From an uncultured Planctomycetota bacterium (GTDB lineage: Bacteria > Planctomycetota > Planctomycetia > Isosphaerales > Isosphaeraceae): a stretch of 64,000 nt of DNA. A program made the translations under genes and the position numbers. Below are positions 3,608-64,000 of this stretch, piece after piece. Numbering within the stretch: the first letter of the stretch is position 1; every line of letters starts with the position of its first letter. Under the pieces are notes generated by a model, which saw only the letters and a program-made list of their open reading frames with translations, was not told where the DNA came from and ran no database searches. Where the stretch lies: the NCBI GenBank assembly GCA_963845755.1, contig CAWJTV010000020.1:352001-416000 (forward strand), read 5' to 3'.

Positions 3608-3727
3608 ACGAACGCAACACCTCGATGGACCCGGAGCAGCCACGAACACGACCTTGAATCTCCGGGGTGCCCATCTAGAGTTACTGAAGGGAGGTGCGGT
3701 GTCGAAACCGGTACGGAATGGCCGACA

Positions 3728-4348: not shown

Positions 4349-4354
4349 CTTCTC

Positions 4355-4446
4355 AAGGATGAAGGATGAAGGATGAAGGATGAGTAGAGATTCAGCCCCA
4401 TCGTGAATACAGAATCTCGAATCTGAAATCCGGAATTTGGAATTCC
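4355..4446. repeat. Two adjacent heptamer tandem arrays: (AAGGATG)x4 at 4355-4382 and degenerate (GAATYYS)x6 at 4405-4446
   Basis: Read directly: aaggatg x4; gaataca gaatctc gaatctg aaatccg gaatttg gaattcc. Confidence 0.85.
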
Positions 4447-4539
4447 TCGCCGTCCGTGGTAAAACCGAATTCGTTCTACACTCCGGCGCCGCCATCGGTG
4501 TGGCGTCCAACACTGGTCGAGATCCAGGGCCCTGCCATC

Positions 4540-5790: not shown

Positions 5791-5826
5791 GACGTCGAAG
5801 ACAACTCCACCTGAAGTGAGGCAACC

Positions 5827-6261
5827 ATGGAATCCGAAACGATGGGAAGAGTCACGGTTACGGCGAAGGTCGAGAACATGGGGGAGTTGCTTCTGGTTCA
5901 TAAGGGCCAGCTTACCGACGACGAAGTGCATCGAATTGAGGTGAGCGAAGCCTTGGTCGATACTGGGGCGACGAGCCTCTCGATGCCCAAGTCGCTCATT
6001 GATCGTTTGGAACTCGTTCCTCTCCGATCTCGGACCGCCCGGACCAGCGCAGGGCTCGCGACCTTCAACGTCTACGGCGCCGTCCGCCTGACCGTCCAGG
6101 GGAGGGATTGTACCATCGATGTCACCGAGGTTCCCGAGGAATGCCCGGTGTTGATCGGCCAGGTTCCCCTGGAACTGCTCGATTTCGTCGTCGATCCGGC
6201 CAATCAGCGCCTGATCGGTAACCCGGCTCATGGTGGTGAGCAGATGTTCGAGATGTACTGA
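5827..6261 (+). CDS. Clan AA (retropepsin-like) aspartyl protease
   Basis: ALVDTGAT catalytic motif and VLIGQVPLELLDFVVDP C-terminal motif. Confidence 0.85.
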   Translation: MESETMGRVTVTAKVENMGELLLVHKGQLTDDEVHRIEVSEALVDTGATSLSMPKSLIDRLELVPLRSRTARTSAGLATFNVYGAVRLTVQGRDCTIDVTEVPEECPVLIGQVPLELLDFVVDPANQRLIGNPAHGGEQMFEMY

Positions 6262-6546
6262 ATGGGCGTCATTGGATGGGAACTTTCGAGAGAAGATCCT
6301 GAAGGCGCGCCGGATAAGTGGGTGAGATTCAGACCGGCCAACGCTGATCCGCGAGAACCACTTGGGCGGCGGATTCGCGAGGTATCGGGATAAGTCTGTC
6401 CGTCTGTCCGATCTTTCGAAAACTGGTCAGGGTTACTCGTGACGAGAGTTGATCGTGGTGCGGGCGTCTCGTCCGTACGATATGAAGGTATCGCCAGGCC
6501 GCCGTGGCTCGAAACCATCTGCGGCCTCATTCAGTTGGGGAGTTCG

Positions 6547-7428
6547 ATGAGCATCCTGGTCGACAAGAACACACGGTTGATCTGTCAGGGCATCACGGGC
6601 AAGGCGGGGGCCTTCCACTCCGAGCAGTGCCAGTCATACGGCACGAGTCTGGTGGGAGGGATTACGCCCGGTCGAGGGGGCACGACCACGCTGGGGGTGC
6701 CAATCTTCGATACGTGCGCCGAGGCGGTCGAGGCGACGGGCGCCAATGCCACCATGATTTTTGTACCGCCCCCGTTCGCGGCCGATGCCATCATGGAAGC
6801 CGCCGACGCGGGCATCGCCCTGGTCGTGGCGATCACCGAGGGCATCCCCGTGATCGATATGGCGCACGCCGTGGCTTACCTCAAGGCACATCGGCCATCG
6901 GTTCGACTGATCGGTCCCAACTGTCCGGGCATCATCACGCCCGGGCAGTGCAAGATTGGCATCATGCCCGGTTATATCCACAAACCCGGCCGGATCGGAG
7001 TCATCAGCCGATCGGGGACCCTGACCTACGAGGCGGTCTGGCAGCTCACGAACCTCGAGATCGGCCAGAGCACCTGCATCGGCATCGGCGGAGATCCGGT
7101 GAATGGTACGAGCTTCGTCGATGCCCTGAGGCTCTTCGAAGCCGATCCGGAGACGGACGGTGTGTTAATGATGGGCGAGATCGGCGGGAATGCCGAGGAA
7201 CAGGCCGCGGCGTTCAAGGCGGCCGGGAAGTTTACCAAGCCACTGGCCGCGTTCATCGCCGGTCAGACGGCTCCGCCCGGCAAGCGGATGGGACATGCCG
7301 GCGCCATCATCTCCGGCGGCTCGGGGAAAGCCTCCGACAAGATTCACGCGCTGGAGGCTGCGGGCATTCGCGTCGCCAAGACCCCGGCCGAGATGGGGAC
7401 CACCTTGAAGGCTGCCCTCAAGGGCTGA
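6547..7428 (+). CDS. sucD: Succinyl-CoA ligase alpha subunit
   Basis: [40 protein letters not shown] phospho-His motif. Confidence 0.97.
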
Positions 7429-7434
7429 TCCACC

Positions 7435-8004
7435 GTGGCGCAAACCGATCCCGATCGAGCCAATCCCTGGACGACACTAAGTAGCCGGTCGGTCTACGAG
7501 AACCCGTGGATCCATGTCCGCGAGGACCATGTGCTCCGGCCGGATGGGCTCCCTGGCATTTACGGCGTCGTCCATTTCAAGAACCGCGCCGTGGGGGTCC
7601 TGCCGGTCAACGATCAGGGCCGAATCTGGCTGGTCGGACAGCATCGCTATCCGCTCGAGGCGTACTCGTGGGAGATCCCAGAGGGCGGCTGTCCTCCGTC
7701 GGAGAGCCCCGAACAGACGGCCGTGCGCGAGCTTCGTGAGGAGACCGGTCTGAGCGCCGGCCGCATCGAGCTGGTGGCGACGTCTCATCTGTCCAATTCG
7801 GTGAGCGACGAGATCGGCTATGTCTTCCGCGCGACCGAGCTGACCCACGGCCCCGACGAGCCGGAAGGTTGCGAACGCATCGAGGTGAAACAATTCGACT
7901 GGGGAGAGGCTTGGGAGATGCTCCGGCGCGGCGAAATCACCGATTCCCTCAGCGTCATCGCCCTGTTGCACGAAGCCGTGCGGCGCCTCGAGGAGGCGAG
8001 ATGA
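7435..8004 (+). CDS. NUDIX hydrolase (ADP-ribose pyrophosphatase-like)
   Basis: Nudix box EGG...ESPEQTAVRELREETG. Confidence 0.9.
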   Translation: MAQTDPDRANPWTTLSSRSVYENPWIHVREDHVLRPDGLPGIYGVVHFKNRAVGVLPVNDQGRIWLVGQHRYPLEAYSWEIPEGGCPPSESPEQTAVRELREETGLSAGRIELVATSHLSNSVSDEIGYVFRATELTHGPDEPEGCERIEVKQFDWGEAWEMLRRGEITDSLSVIALLHEAVRRLEEAR

Positions 8005-44745: not shown

Positions 44746-45819
44746 TCAGCGGGCGGCATAAGTGGTGGGGTGATATCCGGTGGTCAACTCGGGGCGTTTG
44801 TGCCGCCACTTGGGCTCCTGGTCGAGCGAGCGGTTGGTAAAGCCGCGGAGGGCTCGAATGATCCGGCCGTACATGCCGATGGCCGTCGAGGACAGCTTCG
44901 AGCCGGGAGGCGCGTCCATGAACGGCATGAACTTGTCCGGGAAACCGGGCATGGTGCAACCGATGCAGATCCCGCCGACGTTGGGGCAGCCGCCGAGGCC
45001 GGCCATCCAGCCGCGCTTGGGCACGTTGCACTGGACCACCGGGCCCCAGCAACCCATCTTGACCAGGCATTTGGGGGACCCGTACTCGTGGGCGAAGTCG
45101 CCCTGTTCGTAATAGCCCGCGCGGTCGCAGCCCTCATGCACCGTCTTGCCGAACAGCCAGGTGGGTCGATGCGCATCGTCCAGGGGGATCATCGGCGAGA
45201 GGCCCGCGGCCTGGTACAGCAGATACAGGAATGTCTCCATGAAGTTGTCAGGTTGAACCGGGCAGCCGGGCACGCAGACGATCGGAATCCCCGCCTTGGT
45301 CTTCCAATCCCAGCCGAGGTAGTCGAGCAGTCCCATGCAGCCGGTGGGGTTGCCCTCCATCGCGTGAATGCCGCCGTAGGTCGCACAGGTGCCGCACGCC
45401 ACGACGGCCAGCGCCTTGGGCGCCAGGCGGTCGATCCAATCGCAGGTCGGGATCGGCTGGCCGGTCTTCTTGTCGGTCCCGAGCGCGGCCCAGTAGCCCT
45501 CCTTCTTGATCTTCTCGTTGGGGATCGAGCCCTCCACCACCAGGACGAAGGGGTCGAGCCGCCCCTCCTCGGCCTGGTACCAGTAACTCATGAACTCGTC
45601 GCCGTTCTCGTAGGCGAGGACAGGATTGTGCAGGTGGACCTTGGGGAGCCCGGGGATCGCGCCCAGGATCACGTCCTCGATGCTGGGCTGGGTCGCGGCG
45701 GTGATGGAGACCGAGTCGCCGTCGCAACCGAGTCCCGCCGTGATCCAGACGACATGTACCTCCTTCACGGCGGGCGCCTTCTGCGTCTTGCGTCCGTAGG
45801 GGACTGTCGCTTCGGCCAT
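44746..45819 (-). CDS. hhyS: [NiFe]-hydrogenase small subunit, group 1h type, no Tat leader
   Basis: GLGCDGDS, ACGTCATYGG, PGCPVQP, VHEGCDRAGYY, CLVKMGCWGP, CPNVGGICIGC. Confidence 0.93.
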   Translation of the reverse strand: MAEATVPYGRKTQKAPAVKEVHVVWITAGLGCDGDSVSITAATQPSIEDVILGAIPGLPKVHLHNPVLAYENGDEFMSYWYQAEEGRLDPFVLVVEGSIPNEKIKKEGYWAALGTDKKTGQPIPTCDWIDRLAPKALAVVACGTCATYGGIHAMEGNPTGCMGLLDYLGWDWKTKAGIPIVCVPGCPVQPDNFMETFLYLLYQAAGLSPMIPLDDAHRPTWLFGKTVHEGCDRAGYYEQGDFAHEYGSPKCLVKMGCWGPVVQCNVPKRGWMAGLGGCPNVGGICIGCTMPGFPDKFMPFMDAPPGSKLSSTAIGMYGRIIRALRGFTNRSLDQEPKWRHKRPELTTGYHPTTYAAR

Positions 45820-45877
45820 CTCGGGTTCTCCTTTCGGCCTGGGTCCACGGATCGAAACGAATGAGGGGACGGATGGT

Positions 45878-46999
45878 TCAGCAGATCCTCGGCAACTGTT
45901 CTCCTGCCAGCATGGTGACGACACGTTCGCCGCCCACCACCGAGCGCATGGTGACCATGCCCGCGTGTTCGGCGACGACCTCTCCAATGATTGCTGCCTG
46001 ACGTCCGAGCGGATGAGCCTGCATGGCCTGCACGACGCGGGCGGCATCCGCGGGCGGTACGACCGCGATGAGCTTCCCTTCGTTGGCCACATACAGGGGA
46101 TCGAGACCGAGCATCTCGCAGGCGCCCCGGACCTCATTACGGACAGGGATCGCCTCCTCGACGAGCCGGACCCCGACTTGTGAGGCGACGGCCAGTTCGT
46201 TCAAGGTACTCGAGACACCACCGCGGGTCGGGTCGCGCATGGTGCGGATCTCGGGGCAAGCCGCGAGCATGGTGCGGACCAGCCCGGTGAGCGGCGCACA
46301 GTCGCTCTCCAGCATCGTCTCGAATTCGATCCCCTCGCGCACCGACATGATCGCAATCCCGTGGTCGCCGATCGTCCCCGAAACCACAATGCAATCACCG
46401 GGCCGCGCGGCTGCGATCGAGAGATTTCGCCCTTCCGGGACCACGCCGATGCCCGATGTCGTGATGAAGACCTGGTCCCCCTTGCCCCGATCCACGACTT
46501 TCGTGTCCCCCGTGACCAGCGATACCCCCGCCTCATCGCACGCGGCGCGCATCGAGGCGACGATCCGCATCAAGTCCGACAACGCCAATCCTTCCTCGAG
46601 GATGAATGCCGCCGAGAGGAAAAGCGGCTCGGCCCCGCCCACCGCCAGGTCGTTCACCGTGCCGTGAACCGCCAGCCGACCGATGTCGCCACCCGGGAAG
46701 AAGAGCGGCTTGACCACGAACGAATCCGTCGTGAACGCGAGTCGCGGCGCCTTCACACCGTTGTCGCCACCGAGCCGGAGGGTCGCCTGGTCCTCCAGCC
46801 GGGCGAGCACGTCGTTGCCGAACGCGGGGACGAAAAGACGTCCGATCAACTCGGCGGTCAACCAGCCGCCGCTGCCGTGCCCGAGCACGATCTGGTCGTA
46901 CTGAGAGCGCGGGATCGGACAGGAACCGAAGAGCTCGGGAGCGAGGCTCGAGCCGGGATCGGTCGTGTCAGATGACGTCTTCTTCCCCGCGGATGACAT
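45878..46999 (-). CDS. hypE: Carbamoyl dehydratase HypE
   Basis: GHGSGG, TTDSFVV, GTVNDLA, RDPTRGG, C-terminal PRIC. Confidence 0.97.
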   Translation of the reverse strand: MSSAGKKTSSDTTDPGSSLAPELFGSCPIPRSQYDQIVLGHGSGGWLTAELIGRLFVPAFGNDVLARLEDQATLRLGGDNGVKAPRLAFTTDSFVVKPLFFPGGDIGRLAVHGTVNDLAVGGAEPLFLSAAFILEEGLALSDLMRIVASMRAACDEAGVSLVTGDTKVVDRGKGDQVFITTSGIGVVPEGRNLSIAAARPGDCIVVSGTIGDHGIAIMSVREGIEFETMLESDCAPLTGLVRTMLAACPEIRTMRDPTRGGVSSTLNELAVASQVGVRLVEEAIPVRNEVRGACEMLGLDPLYVANEGKLIAVVPPADAARVVQAMQAHPLGRQAAIIGEVVAEHAGMVTMRSVVGGERVVTMLAGEQLPRIC

Positions 47000-47600
47000 G
47001 GATCAAGTCCCACAAAATGTGCAGCAGAGTCTCATGCGTTTCCTGAATACGATGGATGCTGAAGCTGGGGACTGTAAAGCAGTAGTCACAGATCTCGGGC
47101 ATTCGCCCACCGTCACGGCCGGAGAAGCCCACGGTCCGCATTCCCAGTTCGCGTGCCGCCTGGAGTGCGCGGTTGACGTTGGCCGACTTCCCGCTGGTCG
47201 AGATGCCCAGGGCCAGGTCGCCGGCGCGGCCCAGCATCCGGAGCTGCTCGATGAAGGTCATGGAGAAATCCTGGTCGTTGCCGACCGCCGTGAGGAACGC
47301 CGTGTCGGTCGTCAGCGCCATGGCCGGCAGCGCCGGACGTTTTTCGATGATCGGGTGCATGAACTCGACCGAGACATGCGCCGCATCGCACGAGCTGCCG
47401 CCGTTGCCCATGACGAAGAGCCGGCCCCCTTCGTCGAAGGCCCGCGCCATGGCGGTGGCGCACTCGGTGATCCGATCGGCATTCTCGTTGAAGAACTGCT
47501 CCTTCGTCGCCATGCTCTCGCGGCACTTGCGCAGGATCGCCGCGTGCAACACGTCGGAAGCGGACGCTCGGGGCGCGTTCGGGTCGGCGATGACGGCCAT
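46968..47600 (-). CDS. gmhA: SIS-domain protein, GmhA (phosphoheptose isomerase)-like
   Basis: GNGGSSCDAAH, TAVGND, STSGKSAN, RIQETH. Confidence 0.8.
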   Translation of the reverse strand: MAVIADPNAPRASASDVLHAAILRKCRESMATKEQFFNENADRITECATAMARAFDEGGRLFVMGNGGSSCDAAHVSVEFMHPIIEKRPALPAMALTTDTAFLTAVGNDQDFSMTFIEQLRMLGRAGDLALGISTSGKSANVNRALQAARELGMRTVGFSGRDGGRMPEICDYCFTVPSFSIHRIQETHETLLHILWDLIHVIRGEEDVI

Positions 47601-48781
47601 CAGAGGGTTCCTCCGATCTGGACCAGTTGGGGGTCGGCAAGGGGACTCACCTCGGCGGATCCTGACCCATCGGCCCGCCTCGTCCTGGCCGCCTCGAGAT
47701 GGCGGCCGTACGCGTAGTACGCCGCGCAGGCGCCCTCGGACGAGACCATCGTGGCGCCCAAAGGCATCTGCGGAGTACACTCCTTGCCGAATGCGGGGCA
47801 GTCGTGCGGCTTCTTGAGCCCCTTGAGGATCTGTCCGCTGATGCAGAGCGGCGACTCCTGCGTCTCGACGTCGTCCACCTCGAAGAGCCGCTCGGCATCG
47901 TGGGCCCGATACTCGTAGCGCAGCTTGAAACCGCTCTTGGGGATCAGGCCGACCCCGCGCCACTTGCGGTCGCAGACCTCGAACACGTCGTCGATCAGTC
48001 GCCTCGAATCGAGGTTCCCCTCGCGACGGACGACCCGGGCATAGGGGTTCTCGACCTCGGCGCGGCCGGCTTCGAGCTGCTGGATGGTAAGATAGACCCC
48101 TTCGAGCAGGTCGACCGGCTCGAAGCCGGTGACCACGATCGGAACCCGGTATCGGCGGGCGATCGGCTCATATTCCGTGTGACCCATCACGGTGCAGACA
48201 TGCCCCGGTCCCAGGAAGCCCTGGACCCGATTCCCCGGCGCCTGGAGGATGGCCGTGATCATCGGCGGCACGAGCACGTGGGAGACCAGCACGCTGAAGT
48301 TCGTCAGGCGTCTCTTGTGGGCCATCGCGACAGCCATGGCGTTGGGGGGCGCCGTCGTCTCGAAGCCGATCGCGAAGAACACCACGTTGCGGTCCGGGTT
48401 CGCGGCCGCGAGGTTCACGGCGTCCAGCGGTGAATAGACGATCCGGATGTCGCTGCCTCGCGACTTGAGCTGCAAGAGGTCGCCGCGCGAACCGGGCACG
48501 CGGAGCATGTCGCCAAACGAGCAGAAGATGACCTTGGGCCGGGAGGCGATCGCATGCGCGCGGTCGATCATCTCCAACGAGGTGACGCAGACCGGACAGC
48601 CGGGGCCGTGCACCAGCTCGACTTCCGCGGGCAGGATCCGGTCGATCCCGTATTTGACGATGCTGTGCGTTTGACCGCCGCAGACCTCCATGATGGTCCA
48701 GGGCCGGGTCACAATCCGCGCGATCGCACTCGACAACTTACGAACGGCCGACCTGTCGCGGTATTCGTCGAGATGTTTCAT
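47600..48781 (-). CDS. hypD: Hydrogenase maturation factor HypD
   Basis: [41 protein letters not shown]. Confidence 0.97.
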
Positions 48782-49026
48782 GGCGGCGCCTTCAATTCGT
48801 CCAGTTGATCCATGCTTTCGAGGAACGCGAAGACGCGACGGGCCTCGGCCTCGTCGATGCGCGAAAGCGCGAAGCCCACGTGGACCAGCACGTAATCGTC
48901 GGGGACGGCCTCGGGCACGTGCTCCAGGCACACGCGCCGGGAGACCCCGCCGAACTCGACTTTCCCCATCAGGATGTCGTGTTCGCGATAGGTCTCAACG
49001 ACCTTCCCCGGGATGGCAAGACACAT
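48778..49026 (-). CDS. hypC: Hydrogenase maturation chaperone HypC
   Basis: [16 protein letters not shown]. Confidence 0.96.
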
Positions 49027-51316
49027 CAACACCTCCCTCGGTCATTCGTACCTGGGCCACGGCGATGGCGAGCTGGCCCAGGCACAGTCCGCCGTCGTTC
49101 GGGGGCACGAGATGATGTCGGAAGACTCGGAACCCGTCGCCCGTCAGCCTGACCTCGACTTCGGCCGTCAGAAGGGCATTGAGGAACACACCGCCGCTGA
49201 GCACCACGGCATCGAGCCCGGTCTTCAACCGCAAACGCCCGCAAACCCGCGCCACGACTTCCACGATCGTCGAATGGAACCGTCGGGCGATCTTCGCCGG
49301 CACCACTCCGCGACGGGCCTCATCGGCGATCACGAGGACCATCGGCCGCATGTCGATCACGAGCGGATCCACGTTGCCGGTCTCCAGGATCTCGAACGGA
49401 TAGGCTCCCTCGGGCATGACCTCGGATGCGAGCCACTCCAGCTCCATGGCCGCCTGTCCCTCGAAGCTCACTCGTTGCCGGACACCGGCCAGTGCAGCCA
49501 CCGCATCGAAGAGCCGTCCCATGCTGGTGGTTCGCGGCGCATTGAACCGGCCCTCGATCATCCGCTCAATCAGGCGCCGCGATGGGAGTGGGATGATCTC
49601 TGATAAATTCGCAAGTGTCTTGCCTGCGTCGATCAGATGGGCCGCCGCCATCCGCCAGGGCTCCCGGATCGCCTGTTCGCCGCCGGGCATCCCAACCGGA
49701 CGAAGATGAGCCGATCTGCGATAGTCGCGATAATCCCCCGTCAGAAACTCACCGCCCCAGATGACTCCATCGGTCCCGAACCCGCTGCCGTCAAAGGTGA
49801 CGCCGATCACCGGCTCATCCAGGCCATGCTCGGCCATGCAACTGGCCATGTGCGCGTGATGGTGCTGAACGGCGATCTTCGAGGTCGCGCCCGAATGGTT
49901 CCGTGCATAATTCGTCGATTGATAATCGGCGTGCAAATCGTGGACCAACACCTCTGGCCGCAGGTCGAAAAGCTGTTCGTAATGGTCGATCGCTTCGCGG
50001 TAGGCGCGGTAGGCTTCGTAATGGTCGAGATCGCCGATATGGTGACTGAGGAACGCGTGATGTCCGCGTCCCATCGCGAACGTCGTCTTGAGTTGGCCGC
50101 CGAGGGCGAGGGTCGGCCGTCGGCACTCGACCGGCAGGGAGATCGATCGCGGTGCGTCGCCTCGCGAGCGGCGAATCGGCAACTCGGCCCCGGCGACGAC
50201 CCGCGTCACCGAGTCGTCGCAACGGAGATGAATCGGCCGATCGTGGGTGAGGAAGAAGTCGGCGATCCCTGCCAGACGCTCGCACGCATCCCGATCGTCG
50301 TAAGAGATGGGCTCGTCGGACTGATTCCCGCTCGTCATCACCAAGGGCGTACCGCCTAGCTCGCGCAGGAGCAGATGGTGCAAGGGCGTATAGGGGAGCA
50401 TCACGCCGAGCCAGGGATTGCGCGGTGCGATTCCCTCGGCCAGGCAAACGCTCGCCCGACGGCGCAGCAGGACGATGGGTCGGCGAGGCGCGAGGAGCAG
50501 GGTTTCCTCTTCGGGAGAGACCTCACAAAGCTCGCTGCACTGCGGCGATGTCCACGACCATGATCGCGAACGGCTTCTCGTCGCGATGCTTCCGCCGGCG
50601 GAGCTCGGCCGACAGCCTGCTCGTTCCCCGCGACACAGGCCAGGTGATAGCCGCCCAGTCCCTTGATCGCCCCGATCATCCCCTTCTGGAGGGCCGCGGT
50701 CGCATGCGCGACGGGATCGGCCGTCTCGATCGGTCGTCCCCGATGGTCGAGGTAGGTGAGCTGTGGCCCGCAAGCCGGACAGGCGGTGGGCTGGGCGTGG
50801 AATCGTCGGTTGGTCGGATCCTCGTACTCGGCCCGACAGGCGGGACACATGGCGAAGGCGGCCATGCTCGTCCGCTCGCGGTCGTACGGTGTCCCCGTGA
50901 CGATGGTGAGCCGAGGCCCGCAGTTGGTGCAGTTGAGGAACGGATACCGATATCGGCGGTCGTCGGGATCGAAAAGGTCCGCCAGGCAATCCGCGCAGGT
51001 CGCGATATCGGGCGAGATGAAAATCGGACCGGTCTCGTCGAGCACGCTGGACTCGATCCGGAACGAGAGGTCTCCCACGCGGCGGCTGGGACGACCAGTG
51101 CAGTTCGTCGATCCGGGCCAGGGGCGGCGGCTGGGTCGTCAGCTCGGCGAGGAATCGATCCAGGGAGCTCGGCTCCCCCTCCACCTCGATGAGGACGCCG
51201 CCGGTGCAGTTTCGGATACAGCCACGAAGGCCCAGCCGGGACGCGAGCCGGTAGATGTGGGGTCGAAATCCGACACCCTGGACGATCCCGCTGATGGTGA
51301 TCGCGCGACGGATCAT
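48995..51316 (-). CDS. hypF: Carbamoyltransferase HypF; frameshifts near 51075 and 50600-50540
   Basis: [10 protein letters not shown] acylphosphatase domain; zinc fingers [41 protein letters not shown]. Confidence 0.93.
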
Positions 51317-53657
51317 GCAGCGCGCTCCGGCCGATCGCTTCCTTGCGATGGAGCCACGGTCCGCGAATCGTGGTTGTGCTGGGGTTCTTCTTGTACTTTG
51401 GGGGGTGCCGGTGACCCTGTCAACCCACCGTCCTTCGACCAATGGTGAGACGACGGTATAGCGATGGAGCCGTCATGTCCGATTCCTCGTCGGGCCGATC
51501 GACCTCATGGCACAGCTCATGGTACAAGCAAAAGGGCGGAGGGGACTCGATTCGGATCGTGCAGCCGCAGGAAAGTGTAACCGATCCCGGCGGTTCCCAA
51601 CATCAAGGAGGGGTTTGGGCCGCCGGAGTAAAGGCCCGAGGGCCAGTCGCCCGAGTCTGAGTGGCGGGCGATCAAGGCGCGCGCCGCGGCGAGGGCGCCG
51701 TCGCGACACGATGAATCATCGAGCGTCTCGCCGGCGATGAATAGGATCTCGATCAATCCTCCCAGGCCGTGGCATGGGGTTGCGTCGCACCGCGGCGACG
51801 CGAGTTTCTGCTCGATCGCAACACGGGTCGTAGCGATCCCGACTCGGGCCATCGCGAGGTAGTCGTTCCTACACTCCGGGTCGAGCGTGGCGGCACGCAG
51901 CCGCGCCAGAGCAATCCCGGGTGCCCCATGGCACCAGGCCGTTTCGAAACGCAAGCGGCCCGAGCGACGTTTCCGATCGGCCCAGTTGCCATGTTCCGGT
52001 TCGAACAGCGTATCCTCGAATTCAAATGCTCGACGAGCGGCATCCCGGAAATCGACACGTCCGGTCGCCGCGTGGAGCTCGAGCAAGGCCAGGCCGATTC
52101 CGGCCGCGCCGTGGGAGATACCACTGTAGAGCAACTCGGCGGGCGCCGGATCGGTCGCGGAGTCTCCCTCCTGGGGCTGCAAGACCACTCGCCAGAGATC
52201 GGATCGGATTAGATCCTCACCGAGCGTCGTCGCGAGATCGCAGCAGCGCTCCAGGCCGGGCGACTTGCTCAATACGAGGATGCCGGGATCGCCCCGGCAT
52301 TCCCGGCGATCACGTTGACCATGTGGGGCAAAGAAACCGCCTCGACTACCCGATCCAGTATCGATTCGGCCTGGGCGAATCGTTCCTCGGACCGCGTCAG
52401 GTTCCCCATTCTCCAGGCCACATATGCCACTCCCAGATCCCCGCTGAAGAACGACAGTGGAGAGAGGGGCTGCTTCACGGGCCAACGCTCGAACTGACGA
52501 ATCGAGCGGGCCACGGCTCCGTCGGAAATGCGCCGAAACTCGTCGTCGCCGACCGCCGCATCGAGTTGCGCCAGGAATAGCGCCATGCCTGCGGAGCCCC
52601 CGTAGAGATCCGGTCCGAGGGCTGCCGATGCCGGCGTGATCATGCCATCGGTCTGGGCGACCTCGTCGGTTGATCGGCCGATCCAGTTGCAGAACCGGCC
52701 CTCCCGGTCCCAATATGCCGATCGACAAAGGCTCCGACCGATCTGGATGGCTGCTCCAAGAAGCGACGCTGACGCGGGGTGAGCCGGCCCGAACTTGAAG
52801 GTCTCAGGCGTTCTCTCGCGATCTGCGGTCTTCTCGTCGCTCGCCCAGGCAGACGACAACGCCCCAGGGTCGTAATCTTCCCTCGAACCCGGCCCCAGAT
52901 GAGGTCGGAGTGGATCGAGACTCTGGCGGATGAATGCCGCCGCCAAGGCGTCGGCACGACGACAGCGATCGACTTGCCCGCTCAGGAACGATTGCCATAG
53001 GGACTCCGCAACGAGCTGGCATCGATGTTCGCCGAAACTCAACGAACCGCTCGGGTCTTCCGCGAACCCCAATCCGTCGGCCAGCCGCTTGGTGAAGAGA
53101 GGTACCTCCGGGCGAAGTCCGGATGCCACGCTCGAGTAGATGCGGCCGATGACCGCCTCGACCCGGGCCCGGTATCGGCGGCGCAAATAGATCACGCCTG
53201 CATCGGCGCGGTGGTAAGCGTGCGGGTGTCTGAGCACCTTGACCTGGAATGGGAGCCGCGATTCGTTCAAGAGTGAGGTGGCCGTGGCGATGAACGAGAC
53301 CGCCGCGCTGGCTTTCAAGTGCCAATAATAGCGCACGAGGGAGTCCACCCCATCGCGGCTGCTATCGGAGTCATTCTCTTCATCCCCGATGGCGAGATAG
53401 TAGCCCGGGACCAGATTGCGCAGCTCCTTCGCGACTCGAACCGAACAGATTTCGCCAGGCCGGATCGAGCCGTTCTGAACGCGCACATCCGTCGCCTTTG
53501 CCCAGAACTCGACGCCCTCTCTTGCGACCACAATCCGTCCGTCCTCCGCGAGCCGGAGGACAGACCAACCCGACTCCCAGTGCCCTCGGCCGGCGTTGGC
53601 CGCCGAAAGGGCGGCGAGCAGGTCACGCTCGGCGAGCTCATCGCGCTGGGTTAGGGG

Positions 53658-55149
53658 CAATACCGTTGAAATAGGCGCAAGCCACAGCCTCCTGTTACTT
53701 TGGGTTTACTCACGACCCAAGCAACACGGAGGCCATGACTCGCATGCCGCACGGACATTGCACGCTGCCGCCCGATGCGTCGGGCCGGATCTTGGATCGC
53801 TTGGCGGGACTGGAACAGATTATCTCGCCCGAGGCCGTTCGCCAAGTCCTCGCGGCCACCGGTAAAACCAATCAACGACGTTGCACACTGACCCACGAGA
53901 TTGTTTGCTGGGTGGTCCTGGCCATGGGGCTGTTGACCGACTTGCCGATCCGCCAAGTCTTCAAGCATGCACGCCGGCTCCGAGTCGGCGAGGAGAGTCC
54001 CCATCGATCCAGCCTGTGTGTGGCCCGGCAACGCCTGGGCATCGCGCCGGTCCGCCACCTGTTCGAGCACGTCGTTCATCCTCTGGCCCGGCCCGATACG
54101 CCCGGAGCCTTCTACCGCGGGTTCCGCCTGGTCGGCATCGATGGGACCGTCTACGATGTCCCCGACTCGGAGGCCAACGCCGTGGCCTTCGGCGCCCCTC
54201 GGCCGGGCCGCGCGGCGACGGGGCGTTCCCCCAAGTCCGCAAGCTGAGCCTGGTCGAATTGGGGACCCACATCGAACTGGCCTTCGTGGTCCGGTCGATC
54301 GCCCACGGCGAACCGTCGATGGTCGGCGGCTTGCTCCGCCATCTGACTCCGGAGATGCTCCTGTTGGAGGATCGCGGGTTTTTCAGCTATGACCACTGGA
54401 AAACGGCGATGTTGCGGGGCGTCAAGCTGTTGGCACGCGTGAAAAGCGGCTTGATCCTCAAGTCGATCCAAAACCTGGCGGATGGCTCGTACCTGGCCAA
54501 GATTTATCGGGGTTGCTACGACCGTCAGATCGATCGGGATGGGATCGTCGTCCGGGTGATCCGCTATACACTGGACGACCCGCAACGAGTCGGACACGGT
54601 GAAACTCATGTGCTGATCACGAATCTCCTTGACGCGGAGCTTTATCCTGCTGAAGAATTGATCATTCTTTATCACGAGAGATGGGAACAGGAGTTGGTCT
54701 ATGACGAGCAAAAGACCCATCATGATCCGCGGCGGGCGACCAAGCCGGCACAGATGCGGAGCGAGACCCCGGCGGGGGTGATCCAGGAGATCTATGCGCT
54801 GTCGCTGGGTCATTTCGTGATCCGAGCCTTGATGGTTGCGGCCGCCGGGACCGTGGGGCTGGACCCGGATCGGCTGTCGTTTCTGGGGTGCTTCCAGATC
54901 CTCAAGTGCCGGTTGCCAGAATGCAACAGCTCGACCCCCGAGGCGTTCGAGGAGTGGTATCAGCGGATTATTGTGGGAGATGCAGGGGGAACGCACCGAT
55001 GACGAAGTGCGGAGGAACCGGATCAATCCGCGAGTGATCAAGCGTAAAGATGTCGAAATGGAAGAAGAAACGATCCCAAACATCGACACATTCCGCCCTT
55101 GAAGAAAACCTTTGCAGAGACAGTGGTTATGCTTCGTTAAACGGTATTG
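53658..55149 (+). mobile_element. IS4-family insertion sequence, 1492 bp, 10-bp target-site duplication GGGTTAGGGG
   Basis: Left end CAATACCGTTGAAATAGGC, right end reverse complement CAATACCGTTTAACGAAGC; TSD at 53648-53657 and 55150-55159. Confidence 0.93.
53735..55140 (+). CDS. IS4-family DDE transposase; frameshifts near 54195, 54965 and 55045
   Basis: LVGIDGT, LLLEDRGF, LYHERWEQELVYDEQK (Y-R-E-K signature); N-terminal ARQRLG.APV..LF; stop TAA lies in right TIR. Confidence 0.9.
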
Positions 55150-55359
55150 GGGTTAGGGGAGGCGGGGAAGGTCGGAGATAGAGCCACTCGTAAAGGTGGT
55201 CCGCAAGCGCCAAGGTGAGGAGAGTCGGCCCGGCCGTGGAGGACGATTCGGAGAGGGCGTCGTCCGGGATCTCGCGCAGCCTGCCGAGCAGGGCATAGCG
55301 CGATGGTGACAGGATCTCCACCGCGTCGAGAATCGTCAGGAGATCATCGTGGACAGGAG

Positions 55360-56494
55360 TCATGACGCGACAGCTCCCGGCGGAATCCCGAAGAGTTGCA
55401 CCTGGCCAAGCTCGGGTTCAGCCAGTAGGTTCGCGCTAATCTGTAGCAGGAGCACCGGTTGACCGGTGAGACGGTCCGACTTGCCTGTAAGCTCGTAGGT
55501 CGAACTGGATGAGTCGGACTGCGGCGAACGCCACCGCCCGCCGCAAGAACCCGCCCTCCTCGGCAACCTCGAGACCGGCCGCCGCGCGAATAACCAGCCC
55601 ACAAGGCACGTGATGCGGCCCGCAACTCGTCCAGCGGGACCCGCGCCCGTGCGGTCATCTCCTCGGTGGTCAGCTCATCGGAGAGCGGCATCGAGGAGAC
55701 CCAGAGGACCAGGAAATCCTGCAAGGCACCCGCCAAATCCCATGCAGGATCGCCGATCCGGACCATCTCCCAATCGACGATCCACAGCTCGATGGCGTCA
55801 ACTTCCTCGTCCGCCCGCGGTGACCTGACCAGCACGTTGTCGAACCGGATGTCGCCATGGATCACCGTTTCGGGCCGCCACGACCGCGTCAATCGCTCGA
55901 GGTGTTCGACGAAACCCGCGTTGGCCTGAAGAATCCGCAGGATCTCGAGGTCAGCCCGGCTCAATCCGGCGCAATTCTCGGGCCCCGGTTGGTGAAAAAC
56001 TAGGATTGAGGGCAACGCCGGGGGAGCCAATCCAGACGTGGATCGCGTTCCGGATCCATCAGGCGAAAGTCGCGGTGGAGCGTACCCAGGGCTTGACCGA
56101 GTTCCCGAGCCGCCCGGAGGCTATGGCACCGGCCGCCGTGTTCCGCCGATTTGATCTGAAGCGTCGTGGCATCGGAGATCAACTCGAACACGAGAATGGC
56201 ATCTTCGACACAATTGTGCACAAGCCGCGGAAGAAAATGTGTCAAAGCGGTCGCGGCCGGCTCCTCCCGGCAGAACGTGTGGAATAACAATTCGCGACGA
56301 AGCGTCGCATGGCCGCCATGTGACAGGTGGTCCGGCTGTTTGATCAAGAAGCCCACGCCTTCGGGGCCGTCAACCCTCAGATTCCGATTTCGCCGCGAGA
56401 CGCTGCGGATGGTCAAGGTACCGTCGATGATCCATGCGACTTCGATCAGTCCCCGCTCGAGCAGGAAAGGAACGACACTGTCCACATCAAGCAT
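55360..56494 (-). CDS. APH/choline-kinase-fold phosphotransferase (class V LanK/TvaC-like); frameshifts near 56020, 55590, 55500
   Basis: SRRNRN, FLIKQ, IHGDIRFDNVLV, IVDWEM..IGDPAWDLAG; ATGA overlap with downstream HopA1-LanC start. Confidence 0.85.
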
Positions 56495-56626: not shown

Positions 56627-57137
56627 TCAGTCGAGAAGGCTCCGGATGGGCGAGATCACCGAAGGTGATGGCCTAGGAGTTGGCGTCGGGGAAGAGCAGG
56701 CGGCTTCGCTCGGTACTGGAAAGAGTCCCGACGCGAATCCAAGGACGTCGGTGTTTAGCGCAGACTTGATCGAATTAGCCGACACGATAGAGCCTCTCAG
56801 GAATGACGCCTCGACCGACTGGACGAGCTTGAGGGGCCCATCCAAGTTGACGACGATCCTCGTCGGCTGGGTTTCATCCGACGGGTCGAACGGCTCGAGG
56901 TATAGGATCTTGCCCTTGGGCACCTCGACATAAGCCTGGAACCTCAGATCAAGGTAGATGCGAACCAAACCGTTCGGATCGGTGCGCACCGAGGAACCCG
57001 ACCACTACGACGGTTTCGCGTGGCTCGCCGGAATCCTGCAAGATCCTGGCAACTAGCGGATGTGGAGTGAGAACGACGCCCTGCGCGCCAGGGTAGGACG
57101 GTGTCCCCTTGCTGCTTGGATCCTGCTTATCAGCCAC
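56627..57137 (-). CDS. Candidate RiPP precursor with large leader and Ser/Thr/Pro-rich, one-Cys C-terminal core (~169 aa after removing 1-nt insertion near 56988)
   Basis: ORFs 56949-57137 and 56627-56989 join as ...VVVVGFLGATDPNGLVRIYLDL...SFLRGSIVS...SEAACSSPTPTPRPSPSVISPIRSLLD; first gene upstream of kinase. Confidence 0.6.
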
Positions 57138-57354
57138 AGCTCGTCCCTCACAACGTCCGAGGGGGATCTACTCGAGAAGCATGACTACCATAATCATGTT
57201 GCCTGGATCTTCGAGAATATACAGCGTCGTTAGGGATGTCGCAATAGAGTCGTTTCCCGATGGTTAATCTCGCCGCACCGATCGGTGTCATCTAAAAGAA
57301 TAATACAAATAGTTTCTATCATCTTCTTGTATCGCAGATTCCAAGGCGGGGCGA

Positions 57355-60300
57355 TCATGGAATCGTCCGCGCGACACGCATCCCGACATCGGGCTCGAAG
57401 GCTGCTGCCTCGGCCCAGGCTTGATTGGCAGATCGTAGTCCGAGCGAGGCCCTACGGAAGGAGGAACCGCGAAGGATGCGGTTTTCACGAAGGACCGTTT
57501 CGCCAAGAATCTCGTCCGCGATCATGCGGCCCGGAATGATGGCAGATTCCGATTGTCGATCGTGACACCACTCGATCACGTTGCCCAACAAATCGAACAG
57601 TCCCAAGTCGTTAGGAAGCAAACTGCCGCAGGGGCGAGTTCGGTGTCCACCCTTGACGCCCGCATTGTCCAGATACCACTCGTAATACGAGAGCAACCCG
57701 GGGGGACTGCCGAAGTAGCGGGACGTCACGGTTCCAGCCCGGCACGCATACTCCCACTCCGCTTGCGTCGGGAGGCGATACCCGCCAGCAGCCACGGCCT
57801 CGGCATCAACACGCATCCCTGCCGCATATTGGCCTTTATCATTCGGCAGGTAGCATGGTCGTAACTTTTCCTTCGCGCCGAGCCAGTTGCAATAGGCAGC
57901 GGCTTCGTACCAGGTCATGTTGGGTTGGGGGCAGTCCGGGGTGGGACTGTACTGTACCTCGTACCCGTGACGCCTCTTATGCGTCTCCATCGTGTATGTC
58001 TGGAAGCTCTCGACGTTCACCTCCCTGGAAGCGATGGCGAATCGCCGGGGGATGAGTCGTCGATGGAACGGTTTGAAATCGCCTCGAGTCGGTTCGGAGC
58101 GCGGCGAGCCCATGTCGAACAGAGCCGGGCCGTCGATGAGGACCATCGTCTGGCCCTCCCGGTTGACGTACCAGCGCCGGCGGATCGCTTCACCGGCCCG
58201 AGGTGGCTGTCCGGGCTCGAGATTGAGCCGATCGACGTACCCCCATCGTCTCAGGACCAGCTCTGCCGACGAGTGGACGCCTCCGTCAGGATCGTTTCGA
58301 TACAACTTGATCAGAGTCTGGATCAATCGAGATGGTTCTTCGGGGCCGAGGGCCGTCTTCGGATACGCCGCCAATGCCTGGATGAGTGCCCGTTGCCGCG
58401 AGATCAACGGGTCGAAGAGGTAAGAGTTCTTCTCCGAGACCGCTCCCACGTCCTCGCCAAGTCGCTCGAGCTCCACCGCGAGGATCGAGGGGTCTGCGCC
58501 ATAGGGTGCGAGCGCAGTGATGAAATTGCTTCGCACTTCCGGGTCCTTGCTGTGTTCGAGCAACTTCCAGACCTCCTTGTCGGAACCCAGGCGGACCAGG
58601 GCTACTGCCGCTCTTGCCCGGCGCGGATCGCCGAGTCGCGGCCATGCCGCCTTCACTCGGCTGGTGGCCCTCCTTTCCGGAAGCCGGAGACACGGCGGGG
58701 CTCATCCTGCCCATCGAAGCGGGCTGCGTAGACTCTAATTCCTTATGGAGGTCCAGGAGGACTGCCGCAGGATCTCTTTGGATCACGTTGAAAAACAGGG
58801 AGAACGCCTTAGGATCCGCATCGAGCATGACATCGAGCAGATCATTCGGTCTGCCGGCGGCGTAGCGGGACAGAAACTCGGTCGCCAGGTTATGTTCGCC
58901 CTCGGGACGGCCTTCATCGCGAAAGATCCGTTTCAAGGGATCCAAGAGGTAGAGATGGACGCTCGACATGGCATCGAGCCAGCCTTTCGCGTCGAACTGC
59001 CCCCGACCATCGCGCCCGCGACGATGTCGGCGACCTCCGACCAATGCCGATTCGTCGCGTCGTAATCTGCCAGGAGGCCCGCCAAGGGGAGGATCCGGTT
59101 GTCGCCGGGCCTGGCACCCCGCAAGTCACGCCACGACCGATCGAGCAGCATGCCCCGATAAGGTCCCAGGCAAACCCGGAGCACCGCCATCTCGCTCGAG
59201 TCGACGACCGTGTTGGGCGACTTGTCAGGGACCAGGTAGTTGTAGAGGTAATCGACCGGCTCGTCGTTGAACGCAAGGAGAGCGAGGCTGGCGTGAAGCT
59301 TCTGTTTGGTGCGATTCGGCGCCTCGAGGACGATGCGCCTGAGCTCCGGATAGGTCCACCGTCGGAACGCCCAGATCTCGTGAACGATGTCGGGCACTTC
59401 GGCGATCTCGGCCGTGAGGAGCTGTTGCATCAAACCAGCGGCATGGGTTTCCGCGTTGGCCTCGATGAATCGATGACGGATCATGAGTCCCGCGACGAGG
59501 AGGCCGGCGAGCAGGACTGCCCCACCGAGGCCACGGAGCCCGATAATCCAGTCCGCCCGCCTCATCATCCGGCCCTGAGACTCGGTCCACCCCTTTGGCT
59601 TCGTCAGCGACCGGATCGAGAGCCACTCCACGGCCGAGGGCAGGTAACGGTCCTCCGGCTTGGCGTTCCACATCGCCGCGCGCTCCGCCAGCCGGAGTTC
59701 AGCCCGACCTTGGCGGGTCTCGCGTTGCTTGCGCGTCAACCAGTCGCGCAAGGCATGGACCAGGTAATCGTGTGTGAGTTGGTAGCAGCGGCCAGCCGCC
59801 GCGTGAGACGGCATGTCCTCATCGATCGAGCCCTCGGGATCGACGGGTGTGATCAGCCGAAGCTCATTGTCAAGCATGCGGATCAGGTCGATGAAGTCCG
59901 CGCGGGCGATCTCCGTATCCCGATAGACCTCGCAGTTCCTCGATCGATCGCATCCGCCCTTTGATATCCGCGTTCGACTCGGGCAGGAGCGCCTTCAGGA
60001 CGGCCTGCGCCGCCTTCTGGTGATATCGGTGATTTGGGTTGGCTCGCGGCGAGCTGAAGGTCTCCTCCAGGAACGTGACTCCGACTCCGTCCATGCCGCC
60101 GACTTCCCGCAAGGTTGCAGGGACCCAAGCCTTCCTCTTGACCATCTCGGCGAACAGTGCCAGCCGAACCGGGACGACTCGACTATCCTGCGCCAGCCCG
60201 TCGACCGCCTGATCGAGGAAGGCGCGCTGCTCACGGGTAAGGTCGTCGGCCCGCGGCGGCAAGGCTTCGTAAGCGCGCCCGTAGGCCGCCAGGACCTTGC

Positions 60301-62300
60301 GGGCGTGCTTCGGATCGAAGAGGTCGACAGCCGCGACGTTACGATCGGGGACCAGGTCGATCTCGAGGTCTCTCATCAATCGGGTCGCGGCCATCCAGAA
60401 GTCGTCGCGCACGAGGCAGAGGGCCTGGAGATGTTCGCCGTCGCATTGCCGCAGCGCCGCGACCAACTCGGCTGCCGGCTCACCATGATGGGCGAAAAGC
60501 CACTGCTCGAACTGGTCGAGGACCAACAAGACCTTCCGGTCGTGCGTGATGCCCTGGCCGCGCCGGAGGCTCGCCAGCGATTCGACCAGCCCGACGTCGG
60601 CGGGCAGGCTGGGAAACCGCTTGCGGACGCCCCGGAGCAATCGCGCCTCCGTCTCGCCGACGGTCGACTCGACGTAGACCGTCGCGACGTGTTGGCCTAG
60701 CATGGGCAGCAGCCCCGCCTTGACGAGCGACGACTTGCCGCAGCCCGATGGCCCGTAGATGAGCCCGACTCGGAACGTCCTGTCCGGATCGGTTGCCTCA
60801 ATCCGCGTCTTCCAGAACCGCAGTCCTTCGGGGAGCCCTTCGCGATCGCGAGGGCCGGGGAGGAGCTCGAGGAAGAAGTCGGCATCGTTTTCGTCGAAGG
60901 ACCCTAGCCCCTTCGGGACGATCCGGATCGAAAGGAGGATCGAATCCGATGATGCCGGGATGAGGGTCGGCGAGCCTTCGGTCGTCGTCGGTGTCGAGAC
61001 GGTCTTTGCTGCTGGGCTCACGCCGTGCATCGACATCGTCCGCAACTTCGATTCGAGGAAGTGCCGCAAGTCCTCGGCGAGGTCCCTGGCGGTGGCATAT
61101 CGCTCGGAAGATCGTTTGGAAAGCGATTTCAGGCAGATCCGCTCGAGTTCCCGGGGAATCGTGTCGTCGATCTGCCGCGGCGGGCGGGGCTCGGCGTGGA
61201 TGATCTGCTCCATGACCTGGTCCTTCGACGAACCCCGAAACGGTCGGCGGCCGGTCAGCAGCTCGTAGAGGACGACGCCGAGGCTGAAGATGTCCGAGCG
61301 CCCGTTCGACGCGATGCGCTTCACCACGCGCCTGCTCCGGACTCATGTACGCCGCCGTGCCAAGGTGGCGCGATCCCTTTCCCAGGTTTTCCTCCTTCAA
61401 GGCCAGGCCGAAATCCGCCAGGTATGGTGCACCGTGGGCATCGAGCAGGATATTCGCGGGCTTGATGTCCCGGTGAAAGAGGTCATGAATATGAGTGTAG
61501 TGCAGTGCCTCGCAGAGGACCGCGATCATCTCGGCGGCCTCGGCAACGGCAAGCCGTCCGCGACGAAGCCGGGCGGCGAGGTCGCCCCCATCCATATACT
61601 TGGACACCACGTAACAGTGGCCGTCCTCGGTGCGGCCCACGTCGTAGACCGGCACGATGTTCGGATGGGAGAGCCGGGCGATGATCCGGGCTTCCTCGAG
61701 GTAGGACTCAACATCCAGGAACCAAGACGACTGTGAGTGTACCGGCTTCTTAATCGCGACGTCGCGGTCGAGCTCGGCGTCGTGCGCCAGGTAGACTCGC
61801 CCGAACCCGCCCTCGCCGAGGACCCGGATCACCCGGTATCGGCCGATGGAACTCGGACATGGGTCCGGCCCGGTCTTGTTCGCCGCTCGGTCACCGTCAT
61901 CTCGGGCCAGAACAGGCGGGTCCGACGAAGGATGTCCCGGAAGGACTCCCGGATCGGCCACGGGTTCCACTGGTGAGTGCTTCAGGAAGGCATACAGCCG
62001 TTTCTGCCGTTCGGTTCTTTCACGCAGCGCTTCCAACAATTCGGGGTCATTGACACCGAGAGACTCCGGGGAAGCGTCCTCGCCGCGACCATAGCGCTGT
62101 TCCCACTGCGCGAGGAAGTCGAGAAGACGGTCATCCCGGTCATCGCTGGGCCCCATCCATACTTCGCCACGCTCGATCTTGGGCTTGCGCAGGGACTCCC
62201 TTTGGGTGTCCTCGCTCGTGGACTGCGCGGGGGTCTCACCGGCCTGGGCGCCGGCCTCAATTCGGGGAGTGGGCTGTGAGTCCGCGTCGGGGTCGTTCAT
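57355..62300 (-). CDS. Ser/Thr kinase - nSTAND1-like P-loop NTPase - TM - helical region - FGE/sulfatase-modifying-factor domain protein; several frameshifts (~61315, 59895, 59000, 58660)
   Basis: LGEGGFG, HRDIKPANILL, DFGLA, YMSPEQARG; PKGL.SFD, GPSGCGKSSLVKAG, LDQFEQ; RLPTQAEWEYACRAG, FDLLGNVIEWC, GMRVART. Confidence 0.85.
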
Positions 62301-62329
62301 CGGCCGCTCCGCTCGATCGTCCCGTAATG

Positions 62330-62592
62330 TCAGAAGGGTGTATTCGATCCATCCAGCCAGTGCGCGGCACGGTCGCTTCCAGGGCGACGACCAGCCGCAT
62401 CCAGACCTCGCTGACGACGCTTTCCAGGTCGTGACGGCCGTGCAGGCCGGAGAAATCGTCCTGATAGATCCGGGCGGCGATTCGCAACATGCGGTCGTGG
62501 GCGCGCTCCAGTAACTCGCACCGAGCCGTGATATCGCCACGGCGGAGCCGGTCGATCAGATTCTTGAGGTTAGCCGAAGTGTCGCCTACCAC
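62330..62592 (-). pseudogene. ECF-type sigma factor remnant with large internal deletion
   Basis: N-terminal LIDRLRRGD..ARCELLERAHDRMLRIA...DLESVVSEVWMRL (region-2-like) followed almost at once by HWLDGSNTPF* in another frame; no region 4 HTH. Confidence 0.6.
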
Positions 62593-62882: not shown

Positions 62883-64000
62883 TCAGGGCAGGGTCCTGAC
62901 GGGGCGGAACCCCAGGTCGGACCGGGATCCCTCCGGCACTAACCAGAATCGGCTCCAGGAGCGGAGCGAGTCGGGGTCGTTCCGGCAGGATCCGCCGCGA
63001 AGATAGCGATATTCGCCCTTCCTCACGGTCTCGTCTGCAATCACATCGCCTTTCCCGTCGGCTGGCCGGTCCTTGAGGTTCCACCCGGTATGACGATCGT
63101 GGCACCACTCCATCGCGTTGCCCAGCATGTCGAATAGCCCGAACTCGTTGGGAAGTCGCATGCCGCAGGAGTGGCGCGGAACCCCGAGGTGTAGTCGATC
63201 GCATAGACTGCGAGCAGGTCGAGGGACTGACCATAGTGGCGGCTGGTCACTGTCCCTGCCCGGGCGGCGTACTCCCATTCGGCCTCGGTCGGCAGGCGAT
63301 AGCCGCCCTGAGCAACCGCCCTGGAGTCGAACCCGCAGCCCCTCCGCGAACGTGCCATCGTTGGTCGCCAGGTAACATGGCGGTAGGCCCTCCCGCTCGC
63401 TGAGCCAGTTGCAGTAGGCCGCGGCGTCGAAATAGGTGATGTCGACCATCGGGCCATCCGGGTCTGGGTCGTAACGCTTGGTGTACTTGTGGGGGGCCTT
63501 TCGCACGTCTCTTGCGAAGGTCTGAAACTCCTCGATCGACACTTCCTTGGAGGCCATGGCCAATCGGTGCGAGATCCGTTGTCTGTGATATACCTCCTCT
63601 TCCTGACGGAGCGGGTCCATCGGCGGGGCGCCCATGTCGAAGTCGACCCGGCCATCGATGAGGATCATCGTCTGGCCAGCCCGATTGACATACCAGCGGC
63701 GGACGATCGGTTCTCCCGCCCGAGGCGCGCCCCCGGGCTCAAGCTTCAGTCGATTCTGGCGACCCCAACGCCTCAGGATCAATTCCGCCGCCGAGTGGAT
63801 GCCGGCGTCGGGGTCGTTGCGGTAGAGGTCCTCCAGGGTTTCGAGCAGCGCGTCGCGCTCGCGAGGATCGGAGTCGAGCGCCACCTTGGGGAATCCCGCG
63901 AGCGCCTGGATCAGCGCCCGGCTCTTCGATCTGGCCCGGTCGAAGAGGTAATCGTTTTTCCCTCCGCCCAGGCCGGGCCTGGCAAGTTCCATCGGGGCGT
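62883..64000 (-). CDS. C-terminal FGE-domain part of a paralog of the 57355-62300 gene (runs off window); frameshifts near 63330 and 63185
   Basis: LYRNDPDAGIHSAAELILRRWG, RRWYVNRAGQTM, YRLPTEAEWEYAARAG, FDMLGNAMEWC, LGFRPVRT. Confidence 0.85.
   Translation of the reverse strand, partial: APMELARPGLGGGKNDYLFDRARSKSRALIQALAGFPKVALDSDPRERDALLETLEDLYRNDPDAGIHSAAELILRRWGRQNRLKLEPGGAPRAGEPIVRRWYVNRAGQTMILIDGRVDFDMGAPPMDPLRQEEEVYHRQRISHRLAMASKEVSIEEFQTFARDVRKAPHKYTKRYDPDPDGPMVDITYFDAAAYCNWLSEREGLPPCYLATNDGTFAEGLRVRLQGGCSGRLSPADRGRMGVRRPGRDSDQPPLWSVPRPARSLCDRLHLGVPRHSCGMRLPNEFGLFDMLGNAMEWCHDRHTGWNLKDRPADGKGDVIADETVRKGEYRYLRGGSCRNDPDSLRSWSRFWLVPEGSRSDLGFRPVRTLP

Follow-up and report, generated by a model that had tools for sequence, protein, structure and literature searches.

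The locus examined here raises the question of whether two short minus-strand open reading frames (ORFs), at 57137-56949 (62 aa) and 56989-56627 (120 aa) of a 64,000-nucleotide stretch of Isosphaeraceae DNA (hereafter, the window), belong to a single gene and, if so, what that gene encodes. The initial annotation had proposed a hidden precursor-like gene that is split by one extra base near position 56988, and the two ORFs lie where it placed them. Alignment with an intact homolog of 169 aa (P0002) agreed on one surplus base but moved it by 4-7 bases: residues 1-51 of P0002 match 57137-56985, and residues 53-147 match a different frame at 56980-56696, which places the surplus base within the interval 56981-56984 of the minus-strand gene. 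Without this base, the gene (56627-57137, minus strand) comprises 169 codons, from a GTG start, directly 5' of which lies a GAGGGA resembling a ribosome-binding site, to a TAA stop at 56627-56629, and all of the previously quoted motifs, as well as the 52-residue tail, were recovered in its translation. The joined protein has five close homologs (E values of 4e-68 to 6e-16), and P0001, a protein from another assembly, matches the window protein at every residue from TPHPLV onward except the one at the break. The joined 169-codon gene is therefore real and not a product of chance. It has no paralog in the window genome (G000), and the single sigma70-like promoter match at the gene is within chance expectation.

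The encoded protein comprises (i) a conserved leader domain (approximately 56819-57068, minus strand) with an HPLV helix followed by six predicted strands; (ii) an SFLRGSI motif (56786-56806, minus strand; [FY]LxGxI in the family), which is predicted to be helical and is likely the recognition site for a kinase-lyase-cyclase set; and (iii) a variable 52-residue tail (56630-56785, minus strand), made up of a spacer and a putative core, whose only Cys codon lies at 56696-56698. The tail holds this one Cys amid 11 Ser, 3 Thr, and 8 Pro residues, in line with the earlier description. A profile search (E ≤ 0.001) returned 752 clusters at 50% identity, of which the best 150 were considered. Leaders and tails were examined in 138 of 152 proteins, those with a leader of at least 85 and a tail of at least 15 residues. 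Leaders (median of 117 aa) were 38% identical in 600 random pairs, vs. 19% after shuffling, whereas tails, which range from 25 to 403 aa, were 24% identical vs. 22% after shuffling (600 random pairs). Conservation is thus confined to the leader and does not run the full length of the homologs, which bears out the proposal of a conserved leader with a variable core. Furthermore, repeated 7-mers occur in 39 of the 138 tails and in none of the leaders.

Both Cys and Ser/Thr are present in all 138 tails, with two or more Cys in 121 and a median of five, although the query profile contained the Cys column and the 138/138 count may therefore be inflated. At loci carrying both the motif and a kinase, most of which were found through a barrel-only motif, 35 of 39 tails contain Cys, and the other four FLxGxI-bearing tails do not. 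Single-Cys tails are a minority type (17/138) that includes close relatives of the window protein. The Ser/Thr/Cys enrichment that had been anticipated for the tails holds for Thr, at 11.3% of tail vs. 6.0% of leader residues, and for Cys, at 8.2% vs. 0.4%, as well as for Pro, but not for Ser, which is not enriched (5.6% vs. 7.8%). Many tails are also rich in both Cys and His, and, in 85 short tails, Thr is enriched 3-5 residues ahead of Cys (z of 2.7-5.1).

Neither Pfam nor NCBIfam held a meaningful match for the leader family (two stray matches in 133 members), nor did a PDB sequence search yield one. The NCBIfam and Pfam models of NHLP and Nif11 leaders matched none of the 133 members, which agrees with the earlier suggestion of a different leader family, and the family alignment has no conserved GG after the leader. 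A pattern-based locus search from a five-row alignment gave 51 matches, none of which was confirmed, and a long fusion, P0166 (one of 7994 candidates), was interpreted as a chimera in which a frameshift joins precursor and kinase.

An AlphaFold model of P0001, built with 133 alignment rows, predicts one helix, six strands, a helical FLxGxI segment, and a coil tail, with a pLDDT of 89-97 across residues 31-110. This model agrees with the folded, β-rich N-terminal region of the initial annotation, and we describe the leader as a predicted small β-barrel that is weakly SH3/Sm-like. In a comparison of the whole P0001 model with 48,161 chains, the best match had a Z of 3.6 (rmsd of 2.9, 47 aligned residues) and none reached a Z of 5; the top rows were Hfq, LSm, SH3, and Tudor barrels, mostly over residues 46-95, with Hfq and LSm at Z values of 2.7-3.3. 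The likeness of the modeled leader to these folds is thus at most a common arrangement, and a Foldseek search gave no match to the P0001 model. The Atlas contains tail-less proteins of 93-114 aa in Thermodesulfobacteriota and Spirochaetota that may be stand-alone relatives and are treated as leads only; the automatic name of such clusters, 'Inorganic pyrophosphatase Ppa family protein,' has no Pfam support and was judged unreliable.

On the same strand, the precursor gene is followed on its 3' side by an APH-family kinase gene, a HopA1-LanC fusion gene, and hypF. The LanK-like kinase gene (55372-56494, minus strand; PF01636) retains the LIKQ, IHGDIRFDN, and IVDWE motifs and contains three frame changes. 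The fusion gene is interrupted: an N-terminal stub (55150-55363, minus strand) precedes an insertion sequence (IS) with a DDE transposase (53658-55149, plus strand; 1,492 bp, 10-bp inverted ends), and the rest of the HopA1-like lyase (LanY)-LanC cyclase fusion lies at 51517-53657 (minus strand; one frame change). Its LanY part matches PF17914 (E of 4.5e-37) and contains the lyase motif FQVKVL...RAD (K...RxD), while its LanC part (PF05147) retains HGAAG, WCHG, and CHG, which we take to be zinc-ligand motifs with roles as in NisC. The roles of the catalytic kinase and lyase residues follow excerpts of PMC9486802. In the genome G015 (L009), the cassette is intact, with the precursor at 3480-4142, the kinase at 4237-5367, and the lyase-cyclase, a single 773-aa ORF, at 5367-7685 of that locus. 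Scanning 20 window ORFs gave no flavin decarboxylase, neither LanD nor LanX was seen in the window, and no LanB match was found in the window genome. The IS interruption is real, as evidenced by a 10-bp target duplication. Because the lyase-cyclase gene is cut by the IS, the window copy of the precursor probably makes no ring, and the local pathway in this genome is probably dead.

Upstream of the precursor gene lies a frameshifted Ser/Thr kinase-nSTAND1 NTPase-FGE-sulfatase-domain gene (57355-62540, minus strand), a conserved neighbor within Isosphaeraceae, which is tandemly repeated further upstream; the second copy (62883-63992) runs past the window end. On the other side, a NiFe hydrogenase small subunit gene and the maturation genes hypE, hypD, and hypF occupy 44746-51442. 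A link between the cassette and these hydrogenase genes was discarded, hypF following the cassette in only four of nine planctomycete loci.

To place the window in its wider context, 84 loci were examined; 5 of them had no usable match and another 14 duplicated other loci, so that 65 distinct loci remained, 12 of them on contigs that were too short. A motif scan supplied loci from genomes, where 26 of 27 were confirmed, and from metagenomes, where 45 of 48 were, and six of the relatives' loci proved to be the same DNA as motif-scan loci. Of the 53 informative loci, 48 had an adjoining APH gene and 2 were class I in type, while the remaining 3 had no enzyme. Lanthipeptide enzymes (APH/HopA1/LanC or LanB/LanC) thus adjoin the barrel gene in 50 of 53 cases, the linkage to RiPP enzymes that the initial annotation had looked for. 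Each of the 39 informative loci at which FLxGxI is matched strictly contained an APH kinase, usually together with a HopA1-like lyase and LanC, and another nine APH loci lacked a strict FLxGxI match. LanY and LanC are fused at some loci and separate at others. The family matched 22 of 121 Isosphaeraceae genomes vs. 0 of 300 others sampled across the phylum; 18 further Isosphaeraceae loci (three of which repeat earlier ones) had APH, HopA1, and LanC in 15 cases and no enzymes in three. Overall, genomes carrying the family span about eight phyla and include type strains of Mesorhizobium (L019) and Catellatospora (L029).

A sub-family of leaders (L029, L042, L055, and P0156-P0165) carries [DE][FY]DLD instead, 3' of the barrel, and precedes LanC and LanB. 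Both informative FDLD loci have LanC and no APH; one (L029/L042) also has LanB, and the other (L055) lies at a contig end. Such cases are few, and the two are probably kin. Homology between the two leader types, FDLD and FLxGxI, extends over 88 columns and stops short of the motif (probability of 98.9). Thus, the motif 3' of the barrel exchanges with the enzyme class, FLxGxI accompanying APH and FDLD accompanying LanB-LanC, and since the same barrel carries FDLD for class I enzymes, we regard the barrel as a portable module and not as the element by which an enzyme class is recognized. According to sections of PMC12328550, NisB and NisC read an FxLx motif, which FDLD fits. The FDLD precursors of Catellatospora have a short TCPxRxCxQ core before class I LanC/LanB (L029:6875-11772, L042, and L055), and P0164 and P0165 are longer, Cys-rich versions.

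Other members depart from the window arrangement. Three precursors of 500-700 aa (L036:5530-7239, L104:4722-6893, and L034:2055-3587) consist of repeated Cys-Thr units with Ala/Gln spacers, and we counted 36-41 Cys in two of them. Kinase and lyase genes occur without LanC at L024:4833-7167, L031, and L112, where FLxGxI is kept in slightly altered form, so that LanC is unlikely to be the sole reader of the motif. The tails of L024 and L031 contain Thr and Ser but no Cys, and would yield dehydro residues without rings; a general tie between Cys-free tails and LanC loss was rejected, as it fits these two loci and fails for L112, L012, and L018. In Streptomyces (L039:6328-7209), the barrel is fused to a domain of the AIM3/BBC1 cysteine-proteinase fold, with neither motif and no lanthipeptide enzymes nearby, and the incomplete sequence at L084:1-540 resembles this fusion by eye. 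At L058:2079-2597 and L091:221-739, a barrel with a Cys-free tail, with no motif and no enzymes, is followed by a large ORF that has no Pfam match.

The leader-only conservation and the enzyme neighbors support the precursor-like gene of the initial annotation, and we regard it as likely that the gene encodes the precursor (LanA) of the kinase/HopA1-like lyase/LanC cassette, with a predicted barrel leader, an FLxGxI motif, and a variable tail. The precursor would be organized, in order, as leader barrel, address motif, spacer, and core. In models of CaoK and LxmK (parts of PMC9486802 and PMC12141560), a hydrophobic groove of the kinase takes up the leader, and the FLxGxI helix likely docks on the APH kinase in a similar way. 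The kinase would then phosphorylate Ser/Thr residues of the tail, the HopA1-like domain would eliminate the phosphate, and the resulting dehydro residues would accept a Cys thiol through the zinc-type LanC domain. With its single Cys, the window tail could form at most one thioether ring, whereas many could form in relatives with repeated cores.

The gene product is best read as a class Vb-type lanthipeptide precursor whose protein-like leader is of a third kind and has no relation to those of NHLP and Nif11. Class Vb is defined by LanK, LanY, and LanC, as in mSmoA (Pei et al. 2022, via excerpts of PMC11186320 and PMC12328550), and one product of the class has been characterized according to the former excerpt. 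The window resembles it in having an APH kinase, a HopA1-like lyase, a dedicated LanC, and a core with Ser/Thr and Cys, with no LanD or LanX seen; the assignment is based on the enzyme set. Unlike class Vb, the barrel family has a predicted β-barrel leader of about 117 residues with long and often repeated tails, has LanY and LanC either fused or separate, and extends over about eight phyla. Class Va (lanthidin; LanD and LanX, no LanC) does not describe the window, which has LanC and no flavin decarboxylase among the 20 ORFs scanned. Class I (LanB and LanC, with FxLx/FDLD leaders) describes the L029/L042 sub-family; in contrast, the window protein has FLxGxI in a genome with no LanB match, and known class I leaders are short. 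Likewise, the lanthiphages belong to an antiphage class I LanB/LanC clade enriched in defense islands, whereas the window cassette is of the kinase/lyase type.

The HopA1-LanC clusters of Eyles et al. (2021), with their Family 11 and Family 20 peptides, have, in the sections consulted (PMC8153245), the same enzyme set as the window, including the HopA1-LanC fusion, which that study termed uncharacterized. By eye, an F[LI]xG[DE] motif similar to FLxGxI is present in 15 Family 11 precursors of the supplement, but these peptides, as described there, are actinobacterial, about 90-110 aa long, and lack the barrel motifs. Within the portion of supplementary dataset 2 that was searched by motif, no barrel-family member came up; Families 20 and 22 may bear on novelty. 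Compared with the NHLP (proteusin) and Nif11 leaders, as presented in excerpts of PMC12537861, the barrel leader is similar in that (i) a long structured leader is followed by a short C-terminal recognition segment and (ii) a single leader family serves different enzyme classes. It differs in that the barrel is predicted to be mostly β, whereas theirs have a helical nucleus, and in that the barrel family has neither a conserved double-glycine site nor a C39 transporter. We found no evident description of the barrel leader family in literature that covered few subscription journals.

The strongest alternative holds that the leader is never removed and that the product is a small protein whose barrel binds a partner, such as the kinase-STAND-FGE protein, while it displays a thioether-stapled tail in intracellular defense or signaling. 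Its chemistry would be identical to that of the precursor reading, and the two differ in fate and role. Consistent with an uncleaved leader, the neighbors scanned across the barrel loci included no conserved protease, no recurrent transporter, and no C39 match. Moreover, 8 of 9 planctomycete loci have the kinase-nSTAND1-FGE gene upstream, as do 11 of the 15 enzyme-bearing loci of the further set, which partly overlaps the nine, and in two genomes the STAND-FGE, precursor, kinase, lyase, and cyclase genes occur twice in tandem, with diverged precursors (L117/L118 in G631 and L119/L120 in G633). These STAND-bearing loci are, however, all kin, and the window genome has about ten STAND paralog loci, only one of which (that of the window) precedes the cassette, so that plain synteny suffices to explain the neighbor. 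Known defense genes lie directly upstream at L017:678-2666 (SIR2), L093:5359-10060 (SIR2-TIR and WD40), and L041:7911-12229 (Gabija), but these loci were hand-picked without a baseline, and PADLOC models matched none of the precursor, the kinase, and the lyase-cyclase. Transporter-poor lanthipeptide clusters that act intracellularly against phage, as outlined in part of 10.1101/2024.06.26.600839, also speak for this alternative. Against it, the repeated cores with Ala/Gln spacers and the S8 proteases at 4 of the 65 distinct loci suggest cleavage. Unclustered proteases are, in any case, common. We therefore consider an uncleaved leader unlikely, though it deserves weight, and its fuller form rather unlikely, namely, that the family is a third protein-like RiPP leader family with a plug-in enzyme address that is never cleaved and yields stapled small proteins working intracellularly with a kinase-STAND-FGE sensor in defense or signaling.

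A second alternative concerns the window copy, in which the break at 56981-56984 would be a real mutation in a pseudogene that decayed with its cassette after the IS cut. The IS insertion is indeed real, the neighboring kinase gene carries three frame changes, and, among 17 near-identical IS copies in the genome, that of the window has diverged most (18 substitutions) and may therefore be old. However, the assembly is error-rich: rpoB is in two frames (one frame change) and rpoC in three (two frame changes), although tufA and a further control gene read intact. Nine frame changes occur across six window genes (about 10.6 kb, relative to the orthologs of a relative), hypF has three, and an alignment of the 17 IS copies of the genome has 0.84 indel columns per kb. 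Furthermore, P0001, identical over the domain and the tail, reads through the break; its own N-terminus is frame-scrambled, with upstream frame errors that differ from those of the window. Four public sequencing runs contained 7-10% of the sampled words, mostly from the IS, and none spans 56804-57600; no RNA run was listed as containing the sequence. Since rpoB and rpoC are frameshifted too and the near-identical P0001 reads through, the break is probably an assembly error, and a genuine mutation appears rather unlikely.

That the protein is instead an accessory or metal-binding operon component, with a Cys-rich tail that binds metal or forms disulfides, is suggested by the many Cys- and His-rich tails, by the possible stand-alone barrel relatives, and by the 3 of 53 informative loci at which the barrel stands without enzymes, but is very improbable given the hypervariable, often repeated tails, the enrichment of Thr ahead of Cys, the switching of the post-barrel motif with enzyme class, and an unsystematic look that identified no other short Cys/Ser/Thr ORF as an alternative precursor.

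In summary, the precursor reading points to a widespread family, as yet unnamed and likely undescribed, that combines a predicted β-barrel leader with an exchangeable enzyme address. The precursor survey of Liang et al., as described in part of PMC9486802, collected ORFs under 110 residues, and short-ORF surveys limited in this way would skip the barrel family. For LanK/LanY/LanC enzymes, the family would offer cognate substrates across about eight phyla, some of them precursors with 30-40 Cys. In addition, one folded leader that bears one or the other recognition motif, for dehydratases unrelated to each other, constitutes a natural swap experiment, and the role of protein-like leaders is therefore directly testable. 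Finally, the barrel suggests a soluble scaffold for thioether peptide engineering.
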